Source: an uncultured Alphaproteobacteria bacterium (GTDB lineage Bacteria > Pseudomonadota > Alphaproteobacteria > RF32 > CAG-239). Taken from it: a stretch of DNA of 64,000 nucleotides. This document shows positions 39,455 through 64,000 of the stretch, piece by piece. Position 1 is the first letter of the stretch. Each line of letters begins with the position of its first letter. The notes beneath the pieces were generated by a model, which was given only the letters and a program-made list of their open reading frames with translations, did no database searches and had not been told where the DNA came from. The position numbers and the translations under genes were made by a program. The stretch is taken from contig CAKQPS010000003.1 in the NCBI GenBank assembly GCA_934270475.1, positions 30,261-94,260 on the forward strand, read 5' to 3'.

Positions 39455-39458
39455 TCTT

Positions 39459-40712: not shown

Positions 40713-40724
40713 GGATTTTCTCCC

Positions 40725-42286: not shown

Positions 42287-42291
42287 TTTAA

Positions 42292-43607: not shown

Positions 43608-43608
43608 T

Positions 43609-45755: not shown

Positions 45756-45776
45756 AATATATTTAAGGAACAGCGA

Positions 45777-47473: not shown

Positions 47474-47779
47474 ATGAAAACAGTTAAGATTTACATGGTC
47501 CGAAAACCTTCAGATATTGACGAAGTAATCGAGTTATGCCGGTGCTATAACAATCAGGCAGAGGAAGTAACGGTTGCAGAAACGGTTAACCTGCCGCCAA
47601 TATGGTATGAAGCTGTGTGCCGGAACCCGATGGACAATTATATCTTTTTATCTGGTAAAGGCGGTTATGACGATGAAAACCACCGCCAAGTGGTTGCCTT
47701 ACAATACCCCGGCAAGCCAACGCTTTACGTTGACCCGTCCGGATCCTCTTACTGCCGATACATGGGGGTTGAATTATGA
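47474..47779 (+). CDS. Hypothetical protein (mobile-element-like)
   Basis: 101-aa ORF with an AAAGGA RBS. Its stop overlaps the next start (ATGA). Confidence 0.45.
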   Translation: MKTVKIYMVRKPSDIDEVIELCRCYNNQAEEVTVAETVNLPPIWYEAVCRNPMDNYIFLSGKGGYDDENHRQVVALQYPGKPTLYVDPSGSSYCRYMGVEL

Positions 47780-48033
47780 AAATGCGTAAATATGAGGATA
47801 TCAAGCCGAGCAACCGGACAAACTTTGTGATGGTTTATTATCACGCCGGCCGCACCTTAACTCAAATCGAAACTTTACTGAAAAAGTCCTATGGTAATCC
47901 TCTACCGACAAGACCGCGCGACCGCCTCAACCGCCTGCAATTCAAACTCGAACAAATGACCGCCCGGTACAAACAGTGCGAGAGTGAACTAAAGGCGGAA
48001 TACCAAAAACGGAAAGATTCAATGAATTCTTAA
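47776..48033 (+). CDS. Hypothetical protein (mobile-element-like)
   Basis: 85-aa ORF translationally coupled to the previous one, with a basic, helical C-terminus. Confidence 0.4.
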   Translation: MKMRKYEDIKPSNRTNFVMVYYHAGRTLTQIETLLKKSYGNPLPTRPRDRLNRLQFKLEQMTARYKQCESELKAEYQKRKDSMNS

Positions 48034-48086
48034 GCACATTACTGCTATCGCTGATGTTTTTACACTTGTTATACCTAATTATCTAA

Positions 48087-49154
48087 TTAATCAAAATTAC
48101 TCCAACTTTTTCCGTCAATTAGATTGATAACATCTGAAATGTTTTCAGGTTTATTATTCCAATTCTTTGCAAGGTTTATATACTTTTTGCCAGGAAGACG
48201 CCCACCTAATGAATCTTTTTCAAATCCTTTGGACAACGGAGTTATACTTGACAGTAAAAATAAACGTAGCCCCTTCTTTGCTAAATCTCTTTGCCCATAA
48301 TAATCTCTATCAGCCATAATATTTTTTGCTCTCTTTATCAGTGCGTTCTTATCTTCAATATTACTATATTCTATATCTATATTAAGTTTCGAAGATTTAT
48401 TATCTTTTGTGATATCAACTACTCCATCTATTTCTGCTACAGTTTTTAGTATTTTTCCCTGATCCAATAACCCCATATATTTAGCCTGTTTATGTTTCCA
48501 TGTGCCATTATCAAATGGACAAGAATAACAATTGTGCTTAAGATTTTCAGACATAGTGGTTCCTGTTCTAACAACATCTAGTCTATATTTCCATATAGGA
48601 AGTAGATTTTCATGTAATAAAAATGTTTCAAAATCATTTAACATATAAATAAACATGTCATTTTGGATATTATCAGATATGTGAAGAATTTCTTGATATA
48701 AGTCTATAAAATTTATTGGATATATATGGATATCATCATTTTCGTATCTTTGTTCTATCTCATTTTTTCTATTATTAATTTCCTCCATTGTATTATCAAA
48801 ATTAGAAAGTAATAATAAAAATTTTTTACCATGTTTGTTTTTTAAATTTTCTATATATCCTTCAATTTGATTATTGTAAAACCAATCAAAGTTTTTAGTT
48901 TCAACGTATATGGTAATAGGTTCTTGGGATATGATGCCGTCAGCAATCTGTTTTCCTTTTCTTGTATTAATGCCTTGTTGTTGATAAAAGTTAACACCAA
49001 AATTAAGTTCATCAGTTAAATTTGATAAAATTTGATTGAACAACAAAGGGCTATAACTGTATACCTGATTTAACATAAGTAAACAATAGTTCGTTACACG
49101 ATTTTCTTTTTGATCATAAGTTGTAAAAAATGAAGTTTTGTTTTCCATAATCAT
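48087..49154 (-). CDS. Hypothetical protein with PD-(D/E)xK nuclease-like motif
   Basis: ADGIISQEPITIYVETKNF fits D-x12-E-x-K (codons 48894-48941), with an upstream Glu (KENRVTN). Very AT-rich by eye. No other motif recognised. Confidence 0.4.
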   Translation of the reverse strand: MIMENKTSFFTTYDQKENRVTNYCLLMLNQVYSYSPLLFNQILSNLTDELNFGVNFYQQQGINTRKGKQIADGIISQEPITIYVETKNFDWFYNNQIEGYIENLKNKHGKKFLLLLSNFDNTMEEINNRKNEIEQRYENDDIHIYPINFIDLYQEILHISDNIQNDMFIYMLNDFETFLLHENLLPIWKYRLDVVRTGTTMSENLKHNCYSCPFDNGTWKHKQAKYMGLLDQGKILKTVAEIDGVVDITKDNKSSKLNIDIEYSNIEDKNALIKRAKNIMADRDYYGQRDLAKKGLRLFLLSSITPLSKGFEKDSLGGRLPGKKYINLAKNWNNKPENISDVINLIDGKSWSNFD

Positions 49155-49243
49155 TGTCTCCTATTTGTTGATACATGCTAAAAATACCATAATGTAAAAA
49201 ATTAAAATACCCAAGAGTAAACGGCATCTAATAATTTTATGCT

Positions 49244-49702
49244 TTACAACTTTAAATGCTCTAAAAAGGCCTGACAGCCTTCGTATATATCCCAATAGCT
49301 CTCGTCAAAATTGCCGGTATACCAAGGGTCGCGGATATTACGCGGATTACTGGTAAAATCAAGCAAGCGATGGATTTTGTTTTCCGTATCCGGACCAACG
49401 AGCGATTGAATGTCCTCAATGTTGCTGTCGTCCATCGCCAAAATATAGTCATAATAAGCATAATCGCGCGGACGAATACGACGAGAGTAATGTTCTTCAA
49501 ACGGCACATGCATGGATTTCAGCATCTCGCACGTGCCATGATGAATGCCGGCATGACACATCTCATTGTAACTTTCAGTTGCGGCGGAATCTATTTCAAA
49601 TTTGTCTGCCAAACCGCGCTCCTCAACCATTTGCATAAACACAAACTGCGCCATCGGCGACCGACAAATATTACCCAAACATACAAACAAAACTTTAATC
49701 AT
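49244..49702 (-). CDS. Low-molecular-weight protein-tyrosine phosphatase / arsenate-reductase-fold phosphatase
   Basis: P-loop VCLGNICRSPMA (CX5R-S) at the N-terminus and a DPWY general-acid loop near the C-terminus. 152 aa. Confidence 0.88.
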   Translation of the reverse strand: MIKVLFVCLGNICRSPMAQFVFMQMVEERGLADKFEIDSAATESYNEMCHAGIHHGTCEMLKSMHVPFEEHYSRRIRPRDYAYYDYILAMDDSNIEDIQSLVGPDTENKIHRLLDFTSNPRNIRDPWYTGNFDESYWDIYEGCQAFLEHLKL

Positions 49703-49884
49703 TTTTATTACCTAATTTTACAATTTAATTTTTTATAGCCGTATACCAGAATAAAATCAAGTTTCTTTACTTTTGTACATGCTTATATAACATCTATTGT
49801 AAACGATTATTAACATTTAGCTGTTAAAATATCTTGACATTTAAAAGGAAATATATTATGATTTCTATAAAAGAGAGGTCTACT

Positions 49885-50658
49885 ATGGTTAGCATTTTAA
49901 AAACATTAAGAGAAAAAGAAAACATTTCTCAAGATGATTTGGCATCAGAATTAGGAATTACGCGCCAAACATTAGGTAAATACGAAAATGAGGAAACACC
50001 TTTTCCCTTAGAAACCATTAAAAAACTGGCAAAGATTTTTAATGTTGATTATTCGTGCTTTATCGATAATCGTATGCCAACAACACCGGAATACAATATT
50101 GTTAGTAAACCTAATACTAAACCAAAACAAGATATTCGTATAGATATTCCTCAAGAAAATATTTCTAAATTTAAGCAGGTTTTATTGTACATATTAAATA
50201 AAGTTGGCGCAAAACCAAATGTTGGTCAAACAGTTATCTATAAACTGCTCTATTTTATAGATTTTGATTACTATGAGCTATTTGAAGAACAGCTTATGGG
50301 GTTAAAGTATATTAAAAACACTTATGGCCCTACACCTGTTGACTTTGCAAAACTAATCAAGGAAATGGAAAAAGATGGTGAGCTAGAGGAAATAAAAACA
50401 AAATATTTCAATAAGGACCAAACAAAATATTTGCCGATTAAGGAACCGGATTTAACGATTTTATCTGCTCAAGAACTAAAACACATCGATAAAGAGCTTG
50501 AGCGTTTATCTGATATGACGGGATCAGAATTATCGGCTTACTCCCATAAAGACATTCCATGGATTGGCGCAGATATGGGAGATGTTTTAGATTACGAAGC
50601 TGTTTTTTACAGAAATGATGAGACTTCACGTCGGGAGTATGCGGACGAAAATGATTAA
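49885..50658 (+). CDS. XRE-family HTH fused to a DUF4065 (Panacea / SocA-like) antitoxin domain
   Basis: HTH: LKTLREKENISQDDLASELGITRQTLGKYENEE. C-terminal: VIYKLLYFIDFDYYELFEEQLMGLKYIKNTYGPTPVDF is typical of DUF4065. Alternative ATG at 49858. Confidence 0.75.
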   Translation: MVSILKTLREKENISQDDLASELGITRQTLGKYENEETPFPLETIKKLAKIFNVDYSCFIDNRMPTTPEYNIVSKPNTKPKQDIRIDIPQENISKFKQVLLYILNKVGAKPNVGQTVIYKLLYFIDFDYYELFEEQLMGLKYIKNTYGPTPVDFAKLIKEMEKDGELEEIKTKYFNKDQTKYLPIKEPDLTILSAQELKHIDKELERLSDMTGSELSAYSHKDIPWIGADMGDVLDYEAVFYRNDETSRREYADEND

Positions 50659-51025
50659 CTACGTGACTATTCCCGAATTTAATAAAGATTTCAAATCATT
50701 ATTAAAGCGCTTTAAATCTTTGGAAAAAGACTTTGAAAATATGAAAAAATATACGTTGGAAACCTATTATGAAAAAGGTCAGCCAACAACCGCTTTTGTT
50801 CCGATAGAAGGTTTTTGTTCCGAGAATTATACTTCTAATAAAGTTCGTAAATTTTCGTGTATGACACTGAAAGGACGCGGAGCCGCTTCCGGCATTCGTG
50901 TTATTTTTGTGTGGAAAGAAAGCAAAAGACAAGTAACCTTTATTGAAATGTATTTCAAAGGCGACAAAGAAAACGAAGATAGAGAGCGTTTAGGTAATTT
51001 CATTCAAACTATAGAGGAAAATTGA
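50651..51025 (+). CDS. Putative toxin partner, RelE/ParE-superfamily-like
   Basis: Start overlaps the antitoxin stop by 8 nt. The patterns FNKDFKSLLKRFKSLEKDF...GIRVIFVW...VTFIEMYFKGDKENEDRERL resemble RelE/HigB-type mRNA interferases. Confidence 0.5.
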   Translation: MINYVTIPEFNKDFKSLLKRFKSLEKDFENMKKYTLETYYEKGQPTTAFVPIEGFCSENYTSNKVRKFSCMTLKGRGAASGIRVIFVWKESKRQVTFIEMYFKGDKENEDRERLGNFIQTIEEN

Positions 51026-51046
51026 GGTATTTTGCAGGAGAATATA

Positions 51047-52804
51047 ATGTCAAATGAAGCGTTTAAAGAAGTTGGAAAAAATTTACAAGAAAAAGCAACG
51101 GTAATTTGGAATATTGCCAACCACTTGGCTGGACCGTTCAAACCACACGAATACGGCTTAGTTATCTTGCCGATGACGATTGTCAAGCGTTTTCATGACT
51201 GTTTATTACCACATTATGATGAGATGCAGGCAAAATATGAGCAAGTTAAAAAATTTGAAGTTATCGATGGCTTTATGTGTAAAGCAAGCCACTACCAATT
51301 TTATAACACCAGTAAATTCACGTTTGAAAAGTTATTAGCCGACCCCGCGCACATTGAATCCAACTTTAAGTCTTATTTGAATGGATTTTCGCAAAATGTT
51401 CAGGATGTTTTAGCAAAATTTGAATTTGAAAATATTATCAAACGCATGGTGGAATCTGATACGCTTTATTGGGTTATCAAAGAATTTAATACTGCTAATG
51501 GCTATTTAGGACCGGATAAAATTACGGCGGTTGACTGCGGTTATATTTTTGAAGACCTTGTTCGCCGATTTTCAGAATCTTATGATGAGGAAGCCGGAGC
51601 ACACTTTACCAGCCGCGATATCATTTATTTGATGACAGACCTTCTTCTAACCGATGCCAACTTGCGTGATGAAAACATCTCGGTTTATGATATGACAATG
51701 GGAACAAGCCAGATGTTGTCTTGTATGGAAGAGCGCATTAAACAGCTTAATGCTGATGCTGTTGTTACTTGCTTTGGGCAAGAATTTAACCCATCAACAT
51801 TTGCCATTGCCAAGGCAGATATGCTTATCCGTGGTGGTGAGGCAAACAATATGCGCTATGGCGATACTCTTTCGGATGATAAATTCAAAGGATTTAAGTT
51901 CAAATACCTGATTTCTAATCCGCCGTTTGGTATTGATTGGAAAAAAGAGCAAAAAGCCATAGAAGCTGAACATAACCTCGGCAAAGAAGGACGTTTTGAA
52001 CCGGGATTACCGAAAATTTCTGATGGACAGCAACTATTTATGCTTAACGGCATTGCAAAAATGGCAGATGACGGCAGAATGGCTATCATTCAAAACGGAT
52101 CGCCATTATTTAGCGGCGATGCCGGTTCCGGTCCGTCTGAAATCCGTCGTTATATCTTAGAGAATGACTGGCTTGAAGCTATCGTCCAGCTTTCTAATGA
52201 CCAATTTATGAACACCGGTATTGCAACCTATGTTTGGGTTTTAAATAAAAACAAGCCCGCGCGTAAACAAGGTAAAGTTCAACTAATTGACGCTAGCCAC
52301 TGTTTTGAACCACGTCGCAAATCTATCGGTAACAAGCGTAACGATATTACCGATAAATGCCGCAACATCATCGTGACCACCTTTGGAGAATTTAAAAACG
52401 ATAAAATTTATGGCGATGAGAATGGTATTTATTGTGAAAGCAAAATTTTCAGCACCTTTGACTTTGGCTACCAAAAAATAGTCGTGGAACAGCCACAAAA
52501 AGATGAAAATGGCCAAATTATCATAAAGAAAGGCAAACCGGTTGCTGATACAAATCTGCGAGATACCGAAAATGTGCCGATGAACGAAGACATAAATGAT
52601 TATTTTGAGCGTGAAGTTAAACCTTATGCTCCGGAAGCCTGGATAGATGCTAATAAAACCAAAATCGGTTATGAAATCCCGATGACACGTTATTTTTATA
52701 AGTATCAGGCACCTGAAAAGACATCAGATATTATCGGACGCTTAAATATTCTTGAAACCGACATTACTAACTCGCTGAAACGCTTGTTTCCTAAGGGAGA
52801 ATAA
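51047..52804 (+). CDS. hsdM: Type I restriction-modification system methyltransferase subunit
   Basis: HsdM N-terminal domain and NPPFG catalytic motif (YLISNPPFGIDWKK). The C-terminal segment EIPMTRYFYKY is typical of HsdM. AGGAG RBS precedes the ATG at 51047. Confidence 0.93.
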   Translation: MSNEAFKEVGKNLQEKATVIWNIANHLAGPFKPHEYGLVILPMTIVKRFHDCLLPHYDEMQAKYEQVKKFEVIDGFMCKASHYQFYNTSKFTFEKLLADPAHIESNFKSYLNGFSQNVQDVLAKFEFENIIKRMVESDTLYWVIKEFNTANGYLGPDKITAVDCGYIFEDLVRRFSESYDEEAGAHFTSRDIIYLMTDLLLTDANLRDENISVYDMTMGTSQMLSCMEERIKQLNADAVVTCFGQEFNPSTFAIAKADMLIRGGEANNMRYGDTLSDDKFKGFKFKYLISNPPFGIDWKKEQKAIEAEHNLGKEGRFEPGLPKISDGQQLFMLNGIAKMADDGRMAIIQNGSPLFSGDAGSGPSEIRRYILENDWLEAIVQLSNDQFMNTGIATYVWVLNKNKPARKQGKVQLIDASHCFEPRRKSIGNKRNDITDKCRNIIVTTFGEFKNDKIYGDENGIYCESKIFSTFDFGYQKIVVEQPQKDENGQIIIKKGKPVADTNLRDTENVPMNEDINDYFEREVKPYAPEAWIDANKTKIGYEIPMTRYFYKYQAPEKTSDIIGRLNILETDITNSLKRLFPKGE

Positions 52805-52815
52805 GGACTATAAAA

Positions 52816-53727
52816 ATGGGCAACGATTTAAAAAAGAAAGAAAATTTTCCGCAAATACCACTTTTCGATGACTTGCAAAAAATTTCACAAGCCATTGATA
52901 CTTTTATGACTCCTATATTAAAAACCGTACAAAAATTTGCTGATACAGTTCAACCTATTGTTGAAAAGGCTGGAATAGCTTTTTTAGATTATATAGATAC
53001 AATCCAATTAAAATCAGAGTTAGTAAGAAATTACTGGATTATCATGGATGAAAAATTGCTAAAACTTTTGAAAGATAGCAATAAAAGAAACATACAAGAC
53101 ATTGAACAGATTATTATTGATTACTATAAAGAAAATAACTTTTCCAATCTCAAAGAACTTTTTGAACCCTACAGAGAAAATAAAACATTTGCCAACAGGT
53201 TTCCTGTTATAGATAGCTGTATAACGGTTCTTAAGGATAATTCTTTAGGAGTATCATCTTATGTTGTAATTCCAACTCTTTTGAGCCAAATTACGGGAAT
53301 ATATGATGCTTTTCCAAAGTTGGTTCCTGAACAACAAAAAAAAGAAATCAAAAAACAACTTAATGAAAATAGTAAAAAAATTATCTGTCCTTTAAGTGCT
53401 GATGGCAAGAAACCTTCAAATTGTGAGTTTGTTGCTCAAGGAAATGCTAAAATTAATAAAGACATTTTTGAGCGGTATATGATGGAAAAGGTATCCTATG
53501 GCGTTTATTATAATTACAAAGAAGTCATAGCAAATACATTCAAAAATGGTAAGCAAGTAGATAAAATACAAGATGATATGAGAAAGAAAGGTGTATTCCG
53601 GCATAAAATTTTGCATGGTATTGATATACAATATAATTCAAGCGAAAATGTCGTTAAATGCTTTATGGAGTTGGCGTTTCTGATGAAAATGTACACTCAG
53701 CTTTCAGAGGAGAATACTAATGACTAG
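52816..53727 (+). CDS. Hypothetical protein embedded between hsdM and hsdS; C-terminal Rx4H (HEPN-like) motif
   Basis: 303 aa, 11 nt after hsdM and overlapping hsdS by 8 nt. FRHKILHG lies at 53596-53619, followed by a helix (ENVVKCFMELAFLMKMY). Confidence 0.6.
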   Translation: MGNDLKKKENFPQIPLFDDLQKISQAIDTFMTPILKTVQKFADTVQPIVEKAGIAFLDYIDTIQLKSELVRNYWIIMDEKLLKLLKDSNKRNIQDIEQIIIDYYKENNFSNLKELFEPYRENKTFANRFPVIDSCITVLKDNSLGVSSYVVIPTLLSQITGIYDAFPKLVPEQQKKEIKKQLNENSKKIICPLSADGKKPSNCEFVAQGNAKINKDIFERYMMEKVSYGVYYNYKEVIANTFKNGKQVDKIQDDMRKKGVFRHKILHGIDIQYNSSENVVKCFMELAFLMKMYTQLSEENTND

Positions 53728-55030
53728 GGCTATGAAAGATAGCGGTGTTGAATGGATCGGTGAAATTCCTGAAAATTGGGAAACCGTCAGAACAAAAAAT
53801 GTGGCAACATTATCCAATGGCAATAGCATAAAAGACGACGAAAAATCACAGTATGAGGATTCGACTGATGCCATTCCTTATATTTCAACCAAAGATATTG
53901 ATAGCCTTCATAACATAGATTATTGCAATGGAATGTATGTAAAAAATGATGATTCTAATTTTAAGGTCGCTCATAAAAATTCAATACTTATGTGCATTGA
54001 AGGCGGAAGTGCCGGTATAAAAAAAGCCAAATTAAAACAGGATGTTTGCTTTGTAAATAAACTATGTTGCTTTGAACCTAAGTCGGTAGACTCAGATTAT
54101 TTGTATTATTTCTTAAATAGTCCAAAATATGAGGATCACTTCAAGAGTTTAATGTCAGGTCTAATTGGTGGAGTTAGTATTTCAGATCTTAAAAACATAA
54201 ACTGCACTCTCCCCCCATTATCTGAGCAACAGAAGATTGCGGATTTTTTGGATGAGAAATGCGGGGCGATTGATGAAATTATCAGCAAAACCGAACAATC
54301 TATTGAAGAATATAAAAAGCTAAAGCAATCTGTTATCACTGAGGCTGTAACTAAAGGTGTCCGCCCAAACCGCCCAATGCAAGATAGTAACATTGAGTGG
54401 ATCGGTGAAATTCCACAAAATTGGAGCGTTATAAAACTACGGTATCTTTATCGGTGCCAAAATGGAATAAGCAAATCAGCAGAATTTTTTGGTAAGGGAT
54501 TTCCCTTCGTCTCATATAAAGACGTCTACAATAATGATGTACTACCAGAAACTGTTTCCGGCCTATGTGATGCAACTGAAGAGGAATTAAACAGATATTC
54601 TGTAAAACAAGGAGATATCTTTTTCACAAGAACATCGGAAACAATTGAAGAGATTGGTTTAACATCCATCTGCCTAAATTCATTTGAAAATGCAACATTT
54701 GCAGGATTTTTGATAAGGTGTCGTCCATATACAACAAAATTGGATTTTGAATATTCAAAATACTACATGGCAAGTTCTCATTTGCGCTTATATTTTGTAA
54801 AAGAAATGAATTTAGTTACAAGAGCTTCTCTTAGTCAAGAATTATTAAAGGATTTACAAGTTTTAATTCCACCGCTTGATGAGCAAAAAGAGATTGCTGA
54901 CTATTTGGATGAAAAGTGTGCTGAAATTGATACCTTAATCGAAAAGAAACAACAATTCTTGTCCGAAATGGCAAACTACAGAAAATCTTTAATTTATGAA
55001 TACGTTACCGGCAAAAAGGAGGTTGCATAA
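53720..55030 (+). CDS. hsdS: Type I restriction-modification system specificity subunit
   Basis: Two target-recognition halves, each starting with EWIGEIP(E/Q)NW. Each ends in the conserved helix PPL(S/D)EQ(Q/K)(K/E)IADxLDEKC(G/A)xID. Confidence 0.93.
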   Translation: MTRAMKDSGVEWIGEIPENWETVRTKNVATLSNGNSIKDDEKSQYEDSTDAIPYISTKDIDSLHNIDYCNGMYVKNDDSNFKVAHKNSILMCIEGGSAGIKKAKLKQDVCFVNKLCCFEPKSVDSDYLYYFLNSPKYEDHFKSLMSGLIGGVSISDLKNINCTLPPLSEQQKIADFLDEKCGAIDEIISKTEQSIEEYKKLKQSVITEAVTKGVRPNRPMQDSNIEWIGEIPQNWSVIKLRYLYRCQNGISKSAEFFGKGFPFVSYKDVYNNDVLPETVSGLCDATEEELNRYSVKQGDIFFTRTSETIEEIGLTSICLNSFENATFAGFLIRCRPYTTKLDFEYSKYYMASSHLRLYFVKEMNLVTRASLSQELLKDLQVLIPPLDEQKEIADYLDEKCAEIDTLIEKKQQFLSEMANYRKSLIYEYVTGKKEVA

Positions 55031-56112
55031 TGGATTTTGATGCAATTACCATAGATACCAGTATCTTTGAGGCTTATGGAGCAGAACTAGAAAACGGAAT
55101 ATTAAATAGTATTAAGACGTTTACTAAAAATAAAATAGAAATTGTTATCCCGGATATTATAGAAAAAGAGATACTGTCTCACTTAATTAAGAAAACACAA
55201 GAAAGTCGAAATTCTGCTTACGGCAAATTAAGAGAGCTTAAAAAATATAATTTGTTGAGTGAAACAGAAGTAAATAATTTAATCCATTTACTGGAACAAA
55301 ATAACGTTTTTGATATTGTTAATTGCAGATGGAATGTTTATAAAAAATTAAACAAAATACACATTTTATCAAGTAATAATGTTTTACTAAACGAAGTTAT
55401 ACAAGATTATTTTGATGAAAAACCACCTTTTTCGGAAAAGAAAAAGTATGAATTTCCTGATTCAATTGCATTGAAGACACTTAAAAATTGGGCTGAAACT
55501 AATAATAAAAAAACATTATGTTTTTCGACCGATGGTGATTGGGAAAATTATATAAATGGCGTAGAAAATTTGCGTTATAGTAAGGATATTAGCGGTATTT
55601 TAGGAGAATTAAATAAGGACATACAATTAAGTGATATTGTTAAATTAAAAATAAGTATTGTGTTAACAGCTATTGAGTGTTCGGACATAGGGTTGGAAGC
55701 AGATAAAGAATCGCATCTATGGGAGTCATTCTTTGAGAAAATTGAGCAAATTGTAGAACGAAAAGGTGTCACATTTGGTGGTAATATCAATTTCTATGGT
55801 TCAATAAGTGATTATTCTGTGGGTTTATCTTCTTTCACTTTTCCTAATCATTCGTACGAAATTTTATCTTATGACAATAAAGAAGATGTTATAGATATTT
55901 TAATTCCTATAACTTTAGAATATTTTATTCAAATTGAAGCACAATCAGCAGAAAATAATACTAAGACTGTGTGTTTTCCAGATATTGAGTGTTCTTTTGA
56001 TACCAAAGCTATTATTCAAATGGATTTTAAGACAAAAGAAATTATACAAAATGTAGAAATAACAAGTAGTGTTTTACCTGTAAACTTGGATTTAATAAAA
56101 AACAGTTGGTAA
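55030..56112 (+). CDS. PIN-like domain protein (DUF4935-like) embedded between hsdS and hsdR
   Basis: N-terminal ITIDTSIF followed by IVIPDIIEKEI, FPDSIALKTL and FSTDGDW. This spaced acidic-residue series is as expected for a PIN fold. The start overlaps the hsdS stop (TAATG). Confidence 0.55.
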   Translation: MDFDAITIDTSIFEAYGAELENGILNSIKTFTKNKIEIVIPDIIEKEILSHLIKKTQESRNSAYGKLRELKKYNLLSETEVNNLIHLLEQNNVFDIVNCRWNVYKKLNKIHILSSNNVLLNEVIQDYFDEKPPFSEKKKYEFPDSIALKTLKNWAETNNKKTLCFSTDGDWENYINGVENLRYSKDISGILGELNKDIQLSDIVKLKISIVLTAIECSDIGLEADKESHLWESFFEKIEQIVERKGVTFGGNINFYGSISDYSVGLSSFTFPNHSYEILSYDNKEDVIDILIPITLEYFIQIEAQSAENNTKTVCFPDIECSFDTKAIIQMDFKTKEIIQNVEITSSVLPVNLDLIKNSW

Positions 56113-56131
56113 TCGATTAGGAGGTCGTATC

Positions 56132-59100
56132 ATGGCAATAACTGAAACAAAAGAAAAGAATTTTGAAGCCGATATTGAGAGTTATTTTATCTCAGAAGCT
56201 GGAGGTTACACCAAAGGCAATGCCATTTATGATCCTTCTTGTGCCTTGTTCAAGGACACTTTTATTGAGTTTATCAAAAAAACTCAACCAAAAGCATGGA
56301 AAAAGTTTGAGTTTGCCTATGGAAACAACACCGAGAAAAAATTTATAACTTTCTTCAATGATGCTGTGGAACGTGACGGCATCTTAAAAGTGATGCGCAA
56401 AGGCTTCAAATGTGGTGGTGTTGACTTCAAGGCATGTTATTTTAAGCCGGAATCGACCTTAAATGAGGATGATATAGCTCTTTATAACAGTAATATTTGG
56501 CACTGCTACCGCCAATGGTTTTTCTCCGCAGACAATAATAAATCCGTTGATATGGTTTTGGTATTAAACGGTATACCTTTATTTGCATTTGAGCTTAAAA
56601 ACCAACTAACCGGCCAAGATATTCGTAATGCCGAACACCAGTGGTGCTATGACCGTAATCCGCGTGAATTATGCTTTCGCTTTAATAGCCGAATTTTAGC
56701 TTTCTTCTGCGTGGATTTGCGCCAAGCATCTATGGCCACCAAATTAAACGGTGAAAAAACATTTTTCTTACCATTTAACCAAGGCTCCAATGGTGCGGGC
56801 AATGATGGTGGCGCTGGCAACCCGGCAAATCCGGATGGTTACATGACAAGTTATATATGGGAAAATGTATTCCAGCGTGAATCAATGATGGATATTTTGC
56901 AAAAGTTCATCAACTTGGAAATTACGGAAGAAAAGAAAAAAGGTGGAAAAACCGAAACAAAGAAAACCCTTATATTTCCGAGATATCATCAGTTGGATGT
57001 TGTGCGTAAATTGGTAGCAGATGTTACCGAAAATGGAGCCGGTAAAAGCTATTTAATTGAACATAGTGCCGGTTCCGGTAAATCAAACTCTATTTCTTGG
57101 GTTGCTTATCGTTTAGCCACGATTTTTAAGAAAAACAATGATCCTCTTTTCAAAAGCGTTATCATTGTGACAGACCGCCGCGTATTGGACCAACAGCTAC
57201 AAAACACCGTTGACGGAATGGATCATCTACCGGGATTTGTTGAAACGATTGATAAAGATAAGCATGCTAAAGATTTGAAAACGGCAATTAATGACGGGGC
57301 AAGAATTATTGTAACCACATTGCAGAAGTTTCCGGTGATATATAAGGAAATAGAAGAGGCTCACGGCAAAAATTTTGCGATTATTTGCGATGAAGCGCAT
57401 TCTAGCCAAACAGGCTCTGCCGCCGCAAAATTAAAAATTGCCCTAGCAGATGATGTAGACGCTTTGCGCCAATATGCAGAGTTGGAGGAAAAATCTGAAG
57501 AAGAAATTGATAAAGAAGATCCAATTTTGAAAGAACTTCTAAAGCAGGGTAAGCACAAAAACTTGTCTTATTTTGCCTTTACCGCCACGCCAAAGCCAAA
57601 AACATTAGAGATTTTTGGTTCAGAAGATAGCAACGGGCAGTTTCATCCATTTCACATCTATTCAATGCGCCAAGCTATTGAAGAAGGATTTATTATGGAT
57701 GTTCTGCAAAACTATATGACATATAAAACCTGTTACGCCATTGCTAATAAAACTAAAGATAATCCGGAGGTAAAAGGAATAACTGCCGCTCGTATTATTA
57801 AAAAATATGCCGATTTGCACCCATATAACATTTCATCTAAGGTACAAATTATTATCGAAACTTTCAAAGATATCACTAGCAAAGCTATTGGTGGTAAAGG
57901 TAAAATGATGATTGTGGCGTCTTCTCGTTTAGCCGCAGTTCGCTATTTGCAAGAAATGCGCCGTTATTTGGAAGATATGAAACAAGGACCAAATGCAAAA
58001 GATTATGAAAATATAGATGTTTTGGTTGCATTTTCCGGAACAGTTAAAGATGGTGGCGTTGAATATACAGAGCCACAATTAAATGTTAGAAAAGATGGTA
58101 CTCACATCAGTGAAACACAGTTAAAAAGTGACTTTCATGATGATTTCAATGTGTTAGTCGTGGCCGAAAAATATCAAACAGGTTTCGATGAACCGTTGCT
58201 TCATACAATGATAGTAGATAAGAAACTCAAAGGTGTAAAGGCCGTTCAAACACTGTCGCGCTTAAATCGTGTATGCCCGGGAAAAACGGATACGTTTATT
58301 TTGGATTTTATCAATACGGCTGATGAAATTAAAAAAGCTTTTGAGCCATTCTATACCGAAACCTTCTTAAAAGAATCAATCAATACAGATTTGATATTTG
58401 AGGTTCAAGCAAAAATTGCTGAAGCAAATGTATATAATGAAGCCAATGTAGAGGAATTTGCTAAATTCTATTACAGTGAGGGAACACAATCTGATAAGGA
58501 TTTAGGTAAAATCGCAAGTATGCTTGAGCCTGCTGTGGAGAAATATAGTAAATTAGAGGAAGTTGAAAGATTTGATTTCCGTCGTAATGTTCGTAACCTT
58601 GTTAAATGGTACAATTATATTTCACAAATTAACCGCTTATTTAATGAACAATTGCATAAAGAGGTACTTTATGCCAACGCTTTGAGCAAATTCTTATCCG
58701 AAGATTTGGATCCGGTTGTTGATATTAAAAACAAGCTGAAGCTGGAATATTATAAACTCAAAGAAGTATTTAAGGGCTCCATTTCTTTGGCTGAAGGTAA
58801 AGGCGAAAGTTCTGTTGGAGGCAAAGTTGGTCAAGTTCCAGATCCGGCTTTATTAGATCCATTAAATGAAGTAATTAAGCGGATTAACGAACAGTTTGGT
58901 ATTGATTTAACAGAGGCAGACAAAGTAATTTATAATTCCATCCACGATAAATTGATGGCTGATAAAAAATTACAAAAACTCATAAAATCAAGCAAAGATG
59001 ATGAAGAGAAGATTTTCGCATCATCTATTTTTCCTAAATTCTTCGGAGAAGCGGCAAATGCTGGATTTGATGAGCAAGTAGAAGCCTATAACTCATTATT

Positions 59101-59188
59101 TGAAGATAAAAACAAATATAAAGCTATGATGGCAGTTCTAGCCACACAGTTGTTTAAGGAAGTTAGAGAACAAATAAGAGAAGGTTAA
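56132..59188 (+). CDS. hsdR: Type I restriction enzyme R subunit (HsdR, endonuclease/helicase)
   Basis: N-terminal PD-(D/E)xK region (VDMVLVLNGIPLFAFELKN). SF2 motor motifs SAGSGKS, ICDEAHSSQTG, FTATP and QTLSRLNR. 1018 aa. Confidence 0.93.
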   Translation: MAITETKEKNFEADIESYFISEAGGYTKGNAIYDPSCALFKDTFIEFIKKTQPKAWKKFEFAYGNNTEKKFITFFNDAVERDGILKVMRKGFKCGGVDFKACYFKPESTLNEDDIALYNSNIWHCYRQWFFSADNNKSVDMVLVLNGIPLFAFELKNQLTGQDIRNAEHQWCYDRNPRELCFRFNSRILAFFCVDLRQASMATKLNGEKTFFLPFNQGSNGAGNDGGAGNPANPDGYMTSYIWENVFQRESMMDILQKFINLEITEEKKKGGKTETKKTLIFPRYHQLDVVRKLVADVTENGAGKSYLIEHSAGSGKSNSISWVAYRLATIFKKNNDPLFKSVIIVTDRRVLDQQLQNTVDGMDHLPGFVETIDKDKHAKDLKTAINDGARIIVTTLQKFPVIYKEIEEAHGKNFAIICDEAHSSQTGSAAAKLKIALADDVDALRQYAELEEKSEEEIDKEDPILKELLKQGKHKNLSYFAFTATPKPKTLEIFGSEDSNGQFHPFHIYSMRQAIEEGFIMDVLQNYMTYKTCYAIANKTKDNPEVKGITAARIIKKYADLHPYNISSKVQIIIETFKDITSKAIGGKGKMMIVASSRLAAVRYLQEMRRYLEDMKQGPNAKDYENIDVLVAFSGTVKDGGVEYTEPQLNVRKDGTHISETQLKSDFHDDFNVLVVAEKYQTGFDEPLLHTMIVDKKLKGVKAVQTLSRLNRVCPGKTDTFILDFINTADEIKKAFEPFYTETFLKESINTDLIFEVQAKIAEANVYNEANVEEFAKFYYSEGTQSDKDLGKIASMLEPAVEKYSKLEEVERFDFRRNVRNLVKWYNYISQINRLFNEQLHKEVLYANALSKFLSEDLDPVVDIKNKLKLEYYKLKEVFKGSISLAEGKGESSVGGKVGQVPDPALLDPLNEVIKRINEQFGIDLTEADKVIYNSIHDKLMADKKLQKLIKSSKDDEEKIFASSIFPKFFGEAANAGFDEQVEAYNSLFEDKNKYKAMMAVLATQLFKEVREQIREG

Positions 59189-59200
59189 AGGATTTGAACT

Positions 59201-61222
59201 ATGCATATATCGAATGTAGAAATTCATAATTTTAGAAATTTCAATGATGTAAGAATAAAATTAAAAGATGGAGTAAATGTAATATTGGGTCCCAATAATG
59301 CAGGAAAAACAAATTTATTAAAAGTTATTAATCTGCTATCTAATAGAGAAAATTTGAAAGTTTCAGATTTTAATTATAATAATCTTTTTGATAACGCTAA
59401 AAGCTTTTTAAGTGAAGCACCTAGAATTGAAATAACTTATACTATAGAACATATATTTAATTATGATAAGGTTGATAATGCTATAATAAAATTAAAAAAC
59501 TTTATTGTTTACAATGATGATGGCAATCTCCAGCCACAATCTGATGGAAACTATAAAATTACAGGAAAATTCAAGTTATCTTATGGACTTAATGAAAAAT
59601 TTCTTCAGGAATATAAAAACGATATTCAAAATCTACAAAATTTAGCAAATGAAGAATATTTTAATAACTTTATAGAAATTTTAGAAAAGTATATAGAGTA
59701 CTATACCTGGACATGTTATAATACAAATGATGATATAGTAAATAATTTTTCAGAAATTAGCAATATATTTAGCATAGATTTTATTCCTGCGGACCGAAAA
59801 ACGGACACATTACTTCCGGAAACGAGAAAATTTGTAAAGCAACGGATTAAAGAGGATGAACTATCTCAAGGGAATATAAAAACAGACGTGTCAAAACTTC
59901 TTAATAAGAGACTACAACACATTAAAATGGATATTCAAGAGGAATTCAAAGAAGACCAAGAACATATAGGCATAACCAATGGACACAACATATTAGAAAC
60001 AGACTTTAAATATGATGGTGATGCAGCGGATTGTTTCCAGTTTATATTAAAAGATGAGGATAAACAATATAATCTTCCTTTAGAGAATAATGGATTAGGA
60101 TACAATAATTTAATACAGATTTACAATATTATCAAATTTAATATTCATGACGATTACAATATTATATTGATGGAAGAACCGGAGTCCCATTTGCATCCTG
60201 CTATGCAATATAAGCTATTCAAATATTTACAAAGTTTGGAAGAATCTAAAAAGGGTAAAATAAAAAATCAAATAGTGATTACAACTCACTCGCCTAATAT
60301 ATCTGCATCTTCAAATATAGATGATATTATTAGTGTGCATTACTTTCGAGATTCTGCATATGGAGTTTTAATCGAAAATATCAAAGAAAATTTTATTTCA
60401 GATGATGCTAGTAAAAATCAAAAATTGAAACAATCTAAAGAGCATTTAATGAAGTTTTTAGATGTGACAAGAAGTGACATGCTTTTTACAGAAAAAACAA
60501 TATTAGTAGAAGGTTTAGCTGAAAAAATGTTAATGCCCTTATTCTCAATTCATGAGGAAATGGATTTGATTGATAATCATATTTCTCTTGTGGAAGTTGG
60601 AGGGATTAATTTTAAACATTTCTTGCCGCTATTTAACAATGGGAAAAATAAGGTGCTTTGTATTCGGGATTGTGATTTTTCTTATAAAGATAATAATGAT
60701 AATTTAAATATAAATAAGAAGGAATACGAAGAATATATATCAAAATTGAATATAATTGATAAAGATTATAAAGATAACGTTAATATTTATGGAATTACGC
60801 AAATGAACGGAGGTTCTACTTTTGAAGATGAATTGTATTTAGAGAATATTTGTGAGGATGATAAAGATGAAAGTAAAGATAGTAACTGTAAAAATTTATT
60901 AAAATTAGTTTTACCTGAAAGTATCATAAAGTCTAGATTAATTAAAAGGCTTGATTTTTTATTTTGGTTTGAACACAAAGAAGAAATACCAAACAAGAAA
61001 ATCAGAAATAAAATTATAAATAAACTAGAGATATACAAAAAAATTTACGATAGCTCAAATGATGATAAAAAATATATTGAAGATTTATTTTTTGCAAAAT
61101 TATTTCTGAGTTATGCGTTCAATCAAAAGGGAAATTTAGCTCTTTCAATTTTAGTATCTCCTTTTGCTGATACCTTGAAAACTCCAAAATATATAAAGGA
61201 AGGACTAAAATGGATAAAATAA
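59201..61222 (+). CDS. OLD-family ATP-dependent endonuclease (ABC-type ATPase + TOPRIM), GajA-like
   Basis: Walker A GPNNAGKTN (59288-59311), Walker B/D-loop IILMEEPESHLHP (~60161-60199) and ITTHSP. TOPRIM Glu is in ILVEGLAEK (~60497-60530). Also LVEVGGINF and the DxD-type CIRDCD (~60653-60679). Confidence 0.85.
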   Translation: MHISNVEIHNFRNFNDVRIKLKDGVNVILGPNNAGKTNLLKVINLLSNRENLKVSDFNYNNLFDNAKSFLSEAPRIEITYTIEHIFNYDKVDNAIIKLKNFIVYNDDGNLQPQSDGNYKITGKFKLSYGLNEKFLQEYKNDIQNLQNLANEEYFNNFIEILEKYIEYYTWTCYNTNDDIVNNFSEISNIFSIDFIPADRKTDTLLPETRKFVKQRIKEDELSQGNIKTDVSKLLNKRLQHIKMDIQEEFKEDQEHIGITNGHNILETDFKYDGDAADCFQFILKDEDKQYNLPLENNGLGYNNLIQIYNIIKFNIHDDYNIILMEEPESHLHPAMQYKLFKYLQSLEESKKGKIKNQIVITTHSPNISASSNIDDIISVHYFRDSAYGVLIENIKENFISDDASKNQKLKQSKEHLMKFLDVTRSDMLFTEKTILVEGLAEKMLMPLFSIHEEMDLIDNHISLVEVGGINFKHFLPLFNNGKNKVLCIRDCDFSYKDNNDNLNINKKEYEEYISKLNIIDKDYKDNVNIYGITQMNGGSTFEDELYLENICEDDKDESKDSNCKNLLKLVLPESIIKSRLIKRLDFLFWFEHKEEIPNKKIRNKIINKLEIYKKIYDSSNDDKKYIEDLFFAKLFLSYAFNQKGNLALSILVSPFADTLKTPKYIKEGLKWIK

Positions 61223-63138
61223 CATCTCAAGATGATTTGAAAATTTACAATGATGATAATAATTTTCGAATTTTTGCTGGTCCAGGTGCCGGAAAAACAC
61301 ATTTAGTTATTGAAAATATCAAATTAATTATAAAAAACAGTAAAAAATTAAAATTCAACAATCAACGAAAAATCCTGTGCATCACATATACGAATGCGGC
61401 TGTTGATGAAATTATCAGAAGATTAGGTCCTTTTTCAAAATTTGTTGTGGTATCAACTATCCACTCTTTTATAAATGACTATATTATATCTCCTTTTCAA
61501 AAACAATTGAAACTACAAATTCAAAAAGAATTTAACATTAACATTCCTAAGAAAGCTACATTATCTTCTGTTCAGGAAGGTTTTACTGTATTAAGCGGAC
61601 ATAAAAAAGAAGATATCTATAAATGGATTAAGACGAAATATCCGGAAATTAATGAGAAAATGTATTCTGATATATCGAGAATGAAAATGGCTGATATTTC
61701 TGTTGATATAAGCGACATCAACAAATATCCTTTTAATGAAAATGCAAAGGTGTGTATTAAACAAATAAATAGTAATCAAAATATTTCTAATATTATTAAA
61801 GAATATATTTGGTGTGTTGCTAAGAAATTATCATTTGACGAAATTTTGTATTTTGGGTTTTCTTTATTAAAAAATTATCCTATTGTATCTTACATATTAA
61901 GAGCAGAATTTCCATATATATTACTTGATGAGTATCAAGACACAAATCCAATTCAAAATAAAATTATTAGCATGATATCTGAAAAAGAATGCTCAATTAT
62001 GGTTGTCGGAGATATTGCTCAATCAATTTATTCTTTCCAAGGTGCAAAATATCAAGAATTTCAAAATTTTCAAATAGCATCTCCTCTGAATACAATAACT
62101 AAAGCAATAGAAGATAATCGTAGGTGTAATATAAACATAATTAATTTATTAAATTTTTTAAGACAGACAGATACAGCTTTCCAACAAAAGTGCATACAAA
62201 ACAAAAATACTGATAAAGTCACTTTTATTATTCAAAAAAATAACACTATAAGTAAATCTATATATGAAATTATTCCGAATAATACGCAAATATTATGTCG
62301 TAAATGGACTGAGGCGTTTAATTATATTTCTAATGTTTCTGATGAACAAAAGAAATTAATAAATTCAATTTATAACGCTTATACATATTCTATTAAAAAA
62401 GATTTATCAAAAGAAATAGAATTAAGGAAGGATTTATGGATAAACTCCACCCTAGATATAGCTTCTTTGCAAGAAGCTTATGAAAAGAAAAATCTTCCAA
62501 AGGCATTGAATATATTCGAAAAATATCTTGATATCAAAGATTTATTTAAAAATTTTGATGCAAATAAGATGGCAGACTTAAGCGATATCATAAATTTATG
62601 GAGAGATATTTTTTCTAGTAATATTGAAAATTGTCTTTTAAAAAATTTAATCAAGGATATAAATGTTCGTCTTGATCAATTACAGAATATAAATATATTA
62701 AAGAAATTTGAATATCCGCAATCCACTAATGATGAAAGTTATTTTGATGAAATTTATAAACATGTTGACAGCATAACGTATCCTTGTGCAAAAAAAATTG
62801 TATTAGATTTGTTTTCTCCATCATCAAAGCATATGACGATACATAAAGCAAAGGGAAAAGAATTTGATAATGTTTTAGTTAACTTGGAACCTTTTTCTCG
62901 AGGCGAAGAAAAAACTATAGTTCCAGCAAATGTTTTTATTTGCCCTCAAATTATTGGAGATAATTGTTATAATGAATATACTAGAATAGCATATGTTGGT
63001 TGTAGTAGAGCTAGAAATAAACTCTATATTCATTTAAAGGGAAATGAACAAACTGAAGAAGCAATTAGAAAATCTTTAAATGATTATTATAGTGATAATC
63101 CAGAGAAACAAAATTTCTTTGATTTCATTTATTGTTAA
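61210..63138 (+). CDS. UvrD/Rep/PcrA-like SF1 helicase, GajB-like
   Basis: Motif I AGPGAGKTH (61276-61299), Ia CITYTNAAVDEI, II LLDEYQDTN (~61921-61950) and III VVGDIAQSIYSFQGA. C-terminal TIHKAKGKEFDNV and YVGCSRARNKL. Overlaps the OLD gene by 13 nt. Confidence 0.85.
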   Translation: MDKITSQDDLKIYNDDNNFRIFAGPGAGKTHLVIENIKLIIKNSKKLKFNNQRKILCITYTNAAVDEIIRRLGPFSKFVVVSTIHSFINDYIISPFQKQLKLQIQKEFNINIPKKATLSSVQEGFTVLSGHKKEDIYKWIKTKYPEINEKMYSDISRMKMADISVDISDINKYPFNENAKVCIKQINSNQNISNIIKEYIWCVAKKLSFDEILYFGFSLLKNYPIVSYILRAEFPYILLDEYQDTNPIQNKIISMISEKECSIMVVGDIAQSIYSFQGAKYQEFQNFQIASPLNTITKAIEDNRRCNINIINLLNFLRQTDTAFQQKCIQNKNTDKVTFIIQKNNTISKSIYEIIPNNTQILCRKWTEAFNYISNVSDEQKKLINSIYNAYTYSIKKDLSKEIELRKDLWINSTLDIASLQEAYEKKNLPKALNIFEKYLDIKDLFKNFDANKMADLSDIINLWRDIFSSNIENCLLKNLIKDINVRLDQLQNINILKKFEYPQSTNDESYFDEIYKHVDSITYPCAKKIVLDLFSPSSKHMTIHKAKGKEFDNVLVNLEPFSRGEEKTIVPANVFICPQIIGDNCYNEYTRIAYVGCSRARNKLYIHLKGNEQTEEAIRKSLNDYYSDNPEKQNFFDFIYC

Positions 63139-63335
63139 TTTTTTAGGATAATTTCAATCAATTATGTCGTTTTTATGTAAAGCATTCTAAATCTTTGGTT
63201 CGTACATTTTTTGCAGAAGTTATTGTAAATTTTGAAACAACTAAAGGATTTTCTAAGGTTTTTGTTGTTTTTTTTTACATCGCGTTGATTTTTTAGATTA
63301 TTTATCTCAAATTTGATCATTTATGGAAATTTATC

Positions 63336-63845
63336 TCACAGCTCCTTGCTTAAAATATCCTGGCTTTCGGTGAGCATTTTGCGGATATACTCGTCCAAAA
63401 TTGCGGAGGTTTGGTGTTCGTCGGTTCCGAGTTCGGCGGCGATTAAAGCACCGTAGCGCACTGGGAAGCTCATAAACAAATCTCTCAACGCCCGACCGAG
63501 GTTAAAGGCATAATTGCCGGCACGTTTACGGTCAACCATTTCACCGGTCAACATTCGCAACTTGGCCTTAGCCAACATCGCCCGGTAATAAATATCTGCC
63601 GTCTTGGCCTGCTGAAATGTGCCCATATTGCTCATTCGAACGCCACCTTGCGCCTCAAACAGCGGGTCCGGTTTGCGTTGTTGTGTCGGATCGGTATTCA
63701 TAAACCACTCCCGGTTTGCTTCGTCCACATCAATTTTATCATCTCTCGTCTTATGAATACGCCCGGACTTTATCGCCGTCTGCACCGCATTCAGGTTCAC
63801 CCCGCGAATACGCGCATATTCTCGCATTGATACTAATCTTCCCAT
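63336..63845 (-). CDS. Phage-related HTH protein, terminase small subunit-like
   Basis: N-terminal HTH-like SMREYARIRGVNLNAVQTAIKSGRI is followed by a helical oligomerisation-like region. Start chosen at the internal ATG (63845); the ORF track GTG at 63902 is less likely. Family assignment is tentative. Confidence 0.4.
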   Translation of the reverse strand: MGRLVSMREYARIRGVNLNAVQTAIKSGRIHKTRDDKIDVDEANREWFMNTDPTQQRKPDPLFEAQGGVRMSNMGTFQQAKTADIYYRAMLAKAKLRMLTGEMVDRKRAGNYAFNLGRALRDLFMSFPVRYGALIAAELGTDEHQTSAILDEYIRKMLTESQDILSKEL

Positions 63846-64000
63846 AAATTTCCATTTCAAAACCCTAGGTGACCAGCCGGATTTATAAAATGACCAGCCC
63901 ACATTTTAAGAAGTTATTATAATTATTTGATATTGCATTGTTTTTCAAAGCGCCAGACCAGCCGGAATTTTTCTGTTCAGCTAGCGAAACGGTGCGGCTT

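Follow-up and report, generated by a model that had tools for sequence, protein, structure and literature searches.

Foreign genes embedded in type I restriction-modification (R-M) operons have been reported in several bacteria. In the prr locus of E. coli, the HEPN anticodon nuclease PrrC is encoded within the EcoprrI type IC R-M locus, where the R-M system keeps it silent until an anti-restriction peptide unleashes it (PMC12707154; PMC3710099). The RRDM island of enteropathogenic E. coli consists of seven co-directional open reading frames (ORFs) with one repressed promoter; it combines RptR, a type I R-M system, DarTG2 between hsdS and hsdR, and an M48 peptidase, and confers phage resistance (PMC12255303). 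TgvAB of Vibrio cholerae VPI-2 is encoded by two foreign genes that split the hsd genes of a five-gene operon; it defends independently of R-M and is far more common outside type I R-M clusters than inside (PMC11411939). Transcriptional coupling of PIN-like genes to subunits of type I R-M systems has been reported as well, in some cases with no antitoxin, and such arrangements vary between close species (PMC5499597). The HEPN families found in R-M operons are Abi2/AbiD/AbiF, ApeA, EC042_2821 and pEK499_p136, and a multi-pronged defence was proposed for them (Anantharaman et al. 2013, PMC3710099). Here we analysed a 64,000-nt stretch of DNA from an uncultured Alphaproteobacteria bacterium (assembly GCA_934270475.1, contig CAKQPS010000003.1, positions 30,261 to 94,260), referred to as the window, in which a type I R-M operon is interleaved with two uncharacterised genes and followed by a nuclease/helicase pair. 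A sequence-only reading had taken these seven genes for a single coupled system, and their architecture for an undescribed one. The latter claim is not supported, since embedding in R-M operons has already been reported (PMC5499597, PMC3710099, PMC12255303, PMC11411939).

All seven genes predicted at 51047-63138 were recovered from a six-frame ORF list, intact and on the same strand. We refer to the 303-aa protein as X and to the 360-aa PIN_12 protein as PIN.

51047-52804, forward strand: hsdM, type I methyltransferase, 585 aa (N6_Mtase, HsdM_N, PADLOC MTase_I)
52816-53727, forward strand: X, 303 aa, all-alpha protein of an unannotated family with R262-x4-H267-G268, candidate HEPN-like RNase (alignment, AlphaFold2 model)
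53720-55030, forward strand: hsdS, specificity subunit with two target-recognition domains, 436 aa (Methylase_S, PADLOC)
55030-56112, forward strand: PIN_12 (DUF4935), 360 aa, N-terminal PIN nuclease domain and uncharacterised C-terminal region (PF16289)
56132-59188, forward strand: hsdR, restriction/translocase subunit, 1018 aa (Pfam, NCBIfam, PADLOC)
59201-61222, forward strand: gajA, OLD-family ATPase and TOPRIM nuclease, 673 aa (PADLOC, Pfam)
61210-63138, forward strand: gajB, UvrD-like helicase, 642 aa (PADLOC, Pfam)

Comparison with related loci indicates that this is a mix-and-match island and not one fixed seven-gene machine. We assign a probability of about 0.68 to the reading that the region forms one arm of a defence island at a conserved chromosomal hotspot of an uncultured gut or rumen bacterium, that its conserved type I R-M operon serves as a scaffold for interchangeable accessory defence genes, and that the parts act largely as autonomous layers. 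Under this reading, accessory genes would be accepted at three positions of the hsd operon: the hsdM-hsdS junction, the hsdS-hsdR junction and the site directly behind hsdR. In the window these positions would be filled by X, a predicted metal-independent HEPN-like RNase, by the PIN_12 nuclease and by a complete Gabija system, with a gene pair encoding an HTH-Panacea protein and a toxin-like protein in front.

The domain content predicts a complete type I R-M system, as had been proposed. HsdM matched N6_Mtase (PF02384, 180.8 bits), HsdM_N (PF12161, 68.4 bits) and PADLOC MTase_I (1.7e-217), and has an NPPF motif. The mechanical ORF of hsdM opens at TTG 51032; the ATG at 51047, preceded by an AGGAG Shine-Dalgarno sequence, gives the 585 aa found in all homologues. 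HsdS matched PF01420 in two stretches and PADLOC Specificity_I across residues 5-435 (9.7e-95). HsdR matched HSDR_N, ResIII, SWI2_SNF2 and a T1R_D3-like domain in Pfam and REase_I in PADLOC; its match to TIGR00348 (4.8e-59) scored 200 bits, under the equivalog cut-off of 285 bits. The OLD/UvrD pair, which had been called Gabija-like, is Gabija by full-length PADLOC matches. GajA matched PDLC00069 over residues 1-672 of 673 (2.1e-85), with AAA_15 at 128 bits and OLD-like_TOPRIM at 50.8 bits, and GajB matched PDLC00119 (1.8e-97) and UvrD-helicase (PF00580, 135 bits). At the level tested, an ATPase plus OLD-type TOPRIM GajA and a UvrD GajB, the pair is no different from known Gabija. It is unusual only in its position, 12 nt behind hsdR with no detectable promoter of its own or terminator in between.

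The junctions given by the sequence-only reading were reproduced from the coordinates: an 11-nt gap between hsdM and X, an 8-nt overlap of X and hsdS, a 1-nt overlap (TAATG) of hsdS and PIN, a 19-nt gap between PIN and hsdR, a 12-nt gap between hsdR and gajA and a 13-nt overlap of gajA and gajB. A Shine-Dalgarno-like sequence precedes every start codon in the array. The absence of a terminator hairpin between 51047 and 63138 was also confirmed, a consensus scan of the forward strand at 49000-64000 finding 0 terminator-like sites. A permissive scan for a hairpin followed by a T-run gave three weak intragenic candidates in 51047-63138, with T-runs from 52980, 54244 and 59028, and none at any gene junction. 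Since the gaps are 21 nt or less, there is no space for an intergenic terminator. Such tight spacing of co-directional genes is ordinary operon structure and no statistical anomaly.

As in RRDM, a regulator gene comes first behind a single predicted upstream promoter, a toxin-type module lies between hsdS and hsdR, and an extra gene follows hsdR. In contrast to RRDM, the first gene of the unit encodes a predicted HTH_3-Panacea antitoxin, with a toxin-like partner, and not RptR; the embedded X and PIN_12 are single proteins without partner antitoxins; the slot between hsdM and hsdS is filled as well; and the trailing cargo is a complete Gabija. As in prr and the Campylobacter rlo loci, non-hsd genes are interleaved among the hsd genes. 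Miller et al. in 2005 reportedly found that Campylobacter strains carry differing rlo genes in the same hsd slots, and such a change of genes from strain to strain is also seen here. Unlike PrrC and RloC, X carries no ABC-ATPase domain, and neither its sequence nor its predicted fold showed similarity to them. TgvAB, a GmrSD-like enzyme of type IV restriction, acts on DNA, whereas X and PIN_12 are unrelated predicted RNases; like TgvAB, the wider PIN_12 and X families also occur outside hsd loci. A hypervariable PIN_12 set between hsdS and hsdR is not described in the survey of Matelska et al. (PMC5499597). In the literature searched we found no description of the X family, of the hypervariable hsd-embedded PIN_12 set or of three slots that are refilled in varying combinations, as is the case here at one chromosomal hotspot.

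Three slots in related loci

In order to compare the locus with its relatives, the contigs encoding members of the X and PIN clusters were fetched, and thirteen related loci were compared. HsdM and HsdR are 90-99% identical at the protein level across seven loci. Four loci, L019, L001, L028 and L030, share the chromosomal site of the window. On the left flank, L019 has the AAA_14/DUF4143 (PDC-S01) gene and the LMWPc phosphatase gene in common with the window, at 92-98% nucleotide identity, and in L001 the shared sequence runs from LMWPc through X at 90% identity. On the right flank, the terminase-small-subunit-like gene is common to the window, L019 (94%) and L001 (90.5%). L028 and L030 were assigned to the same site by gene content from gene calls. 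The contents of the three slots are listed below, with W denoting the window and L-numbers the related loci.

Between hsdM and hsdS, X: W, L019, L001, L013, L028 and L030; also L005 and L032, where the R-M proteins are only ~40% identical
Between hsdM and hsdS, empty: L012
Between hsdM and hsdS, genes for 217 aa and 338 aa: L036
Between hsdS and hsdR, PIN_12 alone: W, L030, L005, L036 and L037
Between hsdS and hsdR, PIN_12 and a 144-152-aa gene: L019 and L001
Between hsdS and hsdR, PIN_12 and genes for 116 aa and 148 aa: L012
Between hsdS and hsdR, genes for 118 aa and 148 aa, no PIN: L028
Between hsdS and hsdR, a single 141-152-aa gene: L013 and L032
Behind hsdR, same strand, 12-20 nt away, the window Gabija allele: W and L028 (99% identical)
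Behind hsdR, same strand, 12-20 nt away, a second Gabija, 26-27% identical to that of the window: L019
Behind hsdR, same strand, 12-20 nt away, CBASS: L001
Behind hsdR, same strand, 12-20 nt away, Hachiman: L030
Behind hsdR, same strand, 129-170 nt away, HipBA: L005
Behind hsdR, same strand, 129-170 nt away, an AAA_13 ATPase: L012
Behind hsdR, no same-strand gene close by: L013 and L037

The modules assort independently, and the seven genes are therefore not one conserved system. The proposal of a single coupled seven-gene system is not supported in view of this reassortment, which takes place among loci whose HsdM and HsdR are 90-99% identical. The Gabija allele of the window recurs in L028, a locus that lacks PIN. 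We rejected the possibility that Gabija is an integral extension of the R-M system, because the same position is occupied elsewhere by CBASS, Hachiman, HipBA or nothing.

The nucleotide sequences show the same pattern. The window and L019 are 97.7% identical across hsdM and X and 97.0% identical across hsdR, and their PIN and Gabija genes have almost no nucleotide similarity. Identity falls from 94-98% to undetectable exactly at the cassette borders. The G+C content is 0.37-0.39 for hsdM and hsdR, 0.30 for X, 0.28 for PIN and 0.26 for gajAB, with flanks at 0.44-0.49. The target-recognition domains of HsdS also vary among the related loci, while its conserved blocks are kept. The last codons of hsdR and the spacer behind them (59170-59215 in the window) occur in two versions, each tracking the downstream cargo. 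One version is identical for the two Gabija alleles that are only 26% identical, the first three gajA codons included; the other is common to the CBASS and Hachiman cassettes of L001 and L030. These versions suggest defined recombination joints at the cassette start codon. We infer that the conserved hsd sequences would act as homology arms, and that recombination among related loci would swap the cassettes lying between them.

In most relatives, a protein family of 141-152 aa is encoded directly upstream of hsdR, often overlapping its start. The family is not present in the window and has no Pfam or PADLOC match. Its members just upstream of hsdR are as follows.

L019, 13286-13720
L001, 13297-13755
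L013, 12224-12682
L028, 9852-10298
L012, 11481-11927
L032, 6088-6513

As autonomous layers, the modules would each act on their own. The R-M system would cut unmethylated incoming DNA, and GajAB would degrade DNA once an infecting phage perturbs nucleotide pools or DNA ends. Both X and PIN_12 would be latent single-protein nucleases, most likely RNases, that serve as abortive-infection effectors and are silenced by their own non-catalytic regions without a dedicated antitoxin. The predicted Panacea toxin-antitoxin pair would be a further layer. TgvAB and the RRDM island with its DarTG2 offer experimental precedents for autonomous or co-regulated systems within a type I R-M operon (PMC11411939; PMC12255303).

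The embedded proteins X and PIN_12

X had 0 matches in Pfam, PADLOC and NCBIfam, and in PHROGs only a weak match to phrog_21960, a family of unknown function (E 0.0024). Its close clade comprises 15 clusters at 57% identity or more among 5.8 billion proteins. A profile search of 1.84 billion representatives gave 367 relatives at E<=1e-3, or about 370 clusters at 50% identity, and no Pfam domain was found on these relatives. A scan of 38 members at E<=1 showed no recurrent family; one of the 38 had a weak HepT-like match (E 0.0097) that did not recur. In the alignment of these 38 members, which are 19-34% identical to X outside its own clade, P153, Q158, R262, H267 and G268 are invariant, within the motifs [VI]IPTLxAQxxG and R-[HN]-K-I-L-H-G-[DE]. 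The Rx4H motif noticed in X from its sequence is thus real. The HEPN signature is defined as R-(polar)-x3-H (Anantharaman et al. 2013, PMC3710099), and X has a polar residue after the arginine of its R-x4-H.

An AlphaFold2 model of X built with the 38 diverse members had a pLDDT of 81.5 and a pTM of 0.72 and is entirely helical; an earlier model, with 9 close homologues as input, was poor (pLDDT 53). The whole 303-aa model gave no Foldseek match at E<=0.001 in PDB or BFVD, the best having an E of 0.28. HEPN membership of X is therefore only putative, with a motif that fits and no profile or fold match in Pfam, PDB or BFVD. With the motif and the predicted helicity as its basis, we give the HEPN-like assignment roughly even odds. 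Like the HEPN families embedded in R-M operons, X is all-alpha, about 300 aa long, carries R-(polar)-x3-H and lies in an R-M operon. Unlike them, it matches none of their Pfam models and no solved HEPN structure. If X is HEPN at all, it would be an additional HEPN family.

The 360-aa protein matched PF16289 at 85 bits, above the cut-off of 32 (1.1e-23), a family defined by an N-terminal PIN domain and a C-terminal region of unknown function (Matelska et al. 2017, PMC5499597). Its acidic residues D9, E47, D144, D168 and D170 are shared without exception by 14 homologues, which come from widely differing contexts. Both results uphold the earlier description of this protein as PIN-like. The protein falls among 8 clusters in 5.8 billion proteins, and a scan of genome contigs with the PIN alignment found 3 loci only. 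Sequence-profile searches of PDB with X and with PIN gave nothing but coiled-coil or designed-protein noise. Inside backbones with 98-99% identity, PIN alleles are only 26-35% identical to each other. L030 has the PIN allele of the window (98% identity), next to Hachiman and together with an HsdS that is only 45% identical to that of the window. Since one PIN allele is found with HsdS proteins 45% identical, we rejected the idea that the specificity of PIN follows HsdS.

We next consider the ties of both proteins to hsd genes, which bear on how they might be controlled. The close clade of X adjoins hsdM/hsdS in all nine distinct contexts, the window included, with three HsdM families that are 24-42% identical. 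In L009 the arrangement beside hsdM/hsdS is divergent. In the co-directional loci, X always lies between hsdM and hsdS, and its 8-nt overlap into the start of the hsdS reading frame is always kept; in L005-L008 the overlapped frame is a stub of 32-59 aa, and the full hsdS begins downstream. The close relatives of PIN (from P0016-P0022) lie between hsdS and hsdR in eight of eight distinct loci, three of them in the allele group of the window. With the window there are nine distinct loci, and all PIN relatives of two deep hsd-embedded groups occupy this position.

These ties fit an alternative, suggested by the sequence-only reading, in which X and/or PIN_12 are latent RNase toxins held in check by HsdMS(R), as PrrC is by EcoprrI, so that a phage anti-restriction protein (Ocr, ArdA or Stp-like) that disables R-M would trigger abortive infection, with Gabija as a further layer. 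X and PIN flank hsdS with translational coupling through overlaps of 8 nt and 1 nt, no antitoxin gene adjoins either one, the putative catalytic residues of both are invariant, and PrrC provides an experimental precedent (PMC12707154; PMC3710099). We nevertheless consider this alternative unlikely. PrrC and RloC are defined by a regulatory ABC-ATPase domain, which is missing from X, and PIN_12 is also without a PrrC-type NTPase, neither protein having a P-loop or ABC domain match in Pfam. Highly similar R-M backbones (90-99% identical) occur without X in L012 and without PIN in L013 and L028. A conserved HsdMS interface would need to tolerate the extreme divergence of PIN alleles, and the same PIN allele occurs with quite different HsdS proteins.

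The distant relatives also argue against it. The association with hsd genes, which the sequence-only reading had put forward as its own test, holds for close relatives of both proteins and not for distant ones. Distant X relatives (26-35% identity) have as neighbours either a KAP NTPase and DUF2513 or a serine recombinase and a SIR2 gene, and not hsd genes; these neighbourhoods come from a narrower X alignment and 5 metagenome loci. Distant PIN_12 proteins (26-35% identity) are stand-alone, on a mobilisable element, a Bacteroidota chromosome and plasmids, and DUF4935 genes are usually monocistronic (Matelska et al. 2017, PMC5499597). In plasmid searches, we found no nucleotide match for the locus and no X homologue. 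A PrrC-like guard role is possible, more so for X than for PIN.

A bolder form of this idea is more doubtful still. In it, X would found a new HEPN-like RNase family, whose hsd-embedded clade would be a minimal, NTPase-less counterpart of PrrC that docks on HsdM2S and is released as an abortive-infection RNase when a phage anti-restriction attack strikes R-M, and PIN_12 would be a second, independently triggered guard. If it were true, type I R-M operons would serve in general as platforms for the recruitment of 'guardian' nucleases of their own.

Stand-alone PIN_12 genes were also seen on conjugative plasmids, in L035 (4980-6101; Providencia IncC, beside psiA/parB) and in L034 (Erwinia pEB102). 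They adjoin psiA/parB or parA maintenance genes and not defence islands, and the wider PIN_12 family may act in plasmid establishment or competition.

X and/or PIN_12 could instead be accessory factors of R-M (for restriction alleviation control, assembly or mRNA processing) or selfish addiction or stabilisation genes. Neither protein matches a known defence model (PADLOC), X evolves with the locus (in the nearest strain both X and hsdM are 99% identical), PIN_12 genes of conjugative plasmids lie in maintenance or leading regions (psiA, parB, parA), and RNA processing is common among PIN-domain RNases. Against this, near-identical R-M operons that lack X or PIN imply that neither is needed for R-M, and the slots also carry unrelated genes. 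The neighbours are overwhelmingly defence genes (Gabija, CBASS, Hachiman, PDC-S01, a retron-like reverse transcriptase and an RloB-ATPase pair), and the extreme divergence of PIN alleles fits an arms race or cassette dynamics better. We regard this explanation as improbable, the least likely of those considered.

The scaffold with interchangeable and largely autonomous modules remains our preferred reading, and several points weigh against it. The defence role of X and PIN_12 is assigned through guilt by association. The strict adjacency of the X clade to hsdM/hsdS is not obviously explained by hitch-hiking and fits a functional tie to the methyltransferase core. With no antitoxin candidate beside X or PIN_12, some restraint is needed, and the Hsd complex is one candidate for it. 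Finally, co-transcription is deduced from how closely the genes are spaced, from their Shine-Dalgarno sites and from the absence of terminator-like sites.

Candidate transcription signals and the upstream gene pair

By the criterion of close co-directional spacing that the sequence-only reading had itself applied, the unit comprises nine genes, from ~49.87 kb to 63.28 kb, with two extra genes upstream of hsdM. The additional features are as follows.

49812-49862, forward strand: promoter together with a palindrome 5' of it, TTAACA-N6-TGTTAA, a possible operator (in silico)
49834-49862, forward strand: candidate operon promoter, TTGACA-17 nt-TATGAT, 11/12 matches, the best sigma-70-like match in 49-64 kb (in silico)
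49885-50658, forward strand: HTH_3 and SocA/Panacea protein, 257 aa, predicted antitoxin/autoregulator (Pfam)
50651-51025, forward strand: toxin-like ORF of 124 aa, with an 8-nt overlap with the antitoxin gene, ending 21 nt before hsdM
63234-63277, forward strand: AT-rich hairpin followed by T9, candidate terminator after gajB at the end of the variable cassette (sequence and local fold)

The nine genes are probably transcribed together from the promoter at ~49.83 kb, and overlapping genes are probably coupled in translation. L030 and L001 retain the -35 box, both arms of the palindrome and the Shine-Dalgarno site, and the palindrome spacer varies. The HTH-Panacea protein matched SocA_Panacea at 63.7 bits (cut-off 25.7) and HTH_3 at 57.8 bits. 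Its start at ATG 49885 gives 257 aa as in homologues, and the protein is 100% identical in L030. Its HTH domain may also control the operon promoter. The 124-aa ORF, 98% identical in L030, had no family match in Pfam, PADLOC, NCBIfam or PHROGs; it shows a weak, sub-threshold resemblance to HigB-2 toxins (E 0.37). L019 and L028 lack the pair and have in its place a 245-aa gene encoded on the other strand; the operon is therefore modular at its 5' end too.

The hairpin at 63234-63277 is plausible as an intrinsic terminator, judged by its local hairpin and U-tract. The 216-nt stretch that holds it folds no better than shuffled sequences (z 0.26), and the GC-dependent consensus scanner did not pick it up. 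Homology to L001 resumes at 63276.

Two further signals were noted. The conserved 3' part of hsdR contains a promoter-like site at 58907-58936 (TTAACA-18-TATAAT, 11/12), ~265 nt ahead of gajA. L001, L028 and L030 retain this site, and L019, L013 and L012 have a slightly changed form of it; it could drive whatever cassette stands behind hsdR. Inside the 124-aa ORF, at 50872-50908 on the forward strand, a GC-rich hairpin with a folding free energy (dG) of -15.7 kcal/mol is followed by T5. It could be due to chance, or be an attenuator that separates the toxin-antitoxin pair from hsdM.

Flanks of the island and its meaning for the lineage

To the left of the operon, an AAA_14/DUF4143 ATPase of 458 aa at 45750-47126 matched the PADLOC candidate defence family PDC-S01 (9e-183). 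L019 has this gene at 96% nucleotide identity, and gene calls also place it in L028 and L030. It is followed by two small overlapping ORFs of 101 aa and 85 aa at 47474-48033, which have no family matches. These two are adjacent in L001, L028 and L030 and are split by an inserted gene in L019, always to the left of the variable region; they may be another toxin-antitoxin-like pair. A further variable slot at 48016-49242 holds in the window a 355-aa ORF on the reverse strand with no family match. Its counterpart is a DUF5655 gene and a 288-aa gene in L019, and a retron-like reverse transcriptase with PRTase-CE in L030; in L001 other genes are found there, with an RloB and AAA_21 pair further left.

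The conserved right flank of the island is a terminase-small-subunit-like gene at 63336-63902 on the reverse strand (phrog_57, 5e-22; G+C content 0.49), 32-37% identical to genes in phages of Ralstonia, Rhodobacter and Acidithiobacillus. This gene may mark the start of a prophage or satellite that lies beyond the end of the window. Adjoining the defence island on the other side, a reverse-strand cluster of low G+C content (0.33-0.40) at 36000-45000 encodes a glycosyltransferase, a GDP-mannose dehydratase and related proteins, and looks like an O-antigen or capsule locus. The gene mnmA at 34979-36082 marks the core-genome side.

The analysis flags two candidate defence genes, the X family with its invariant Rx4H and the hsd-embedded PIN_12 set. 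It also carries a caution, as operon-like tight spacing should not be read as evidence for a single multi-gene system. Within one lineage, a conserved type I R-M operon can act as a constant frame, with different defence cargo coming to fill at least three of its positions. The related loci, with the same R-M and different cassettes, are natural isogenic-like variants with which one may ask whether the embedded genes act alone, synergise with R-M or guard it.

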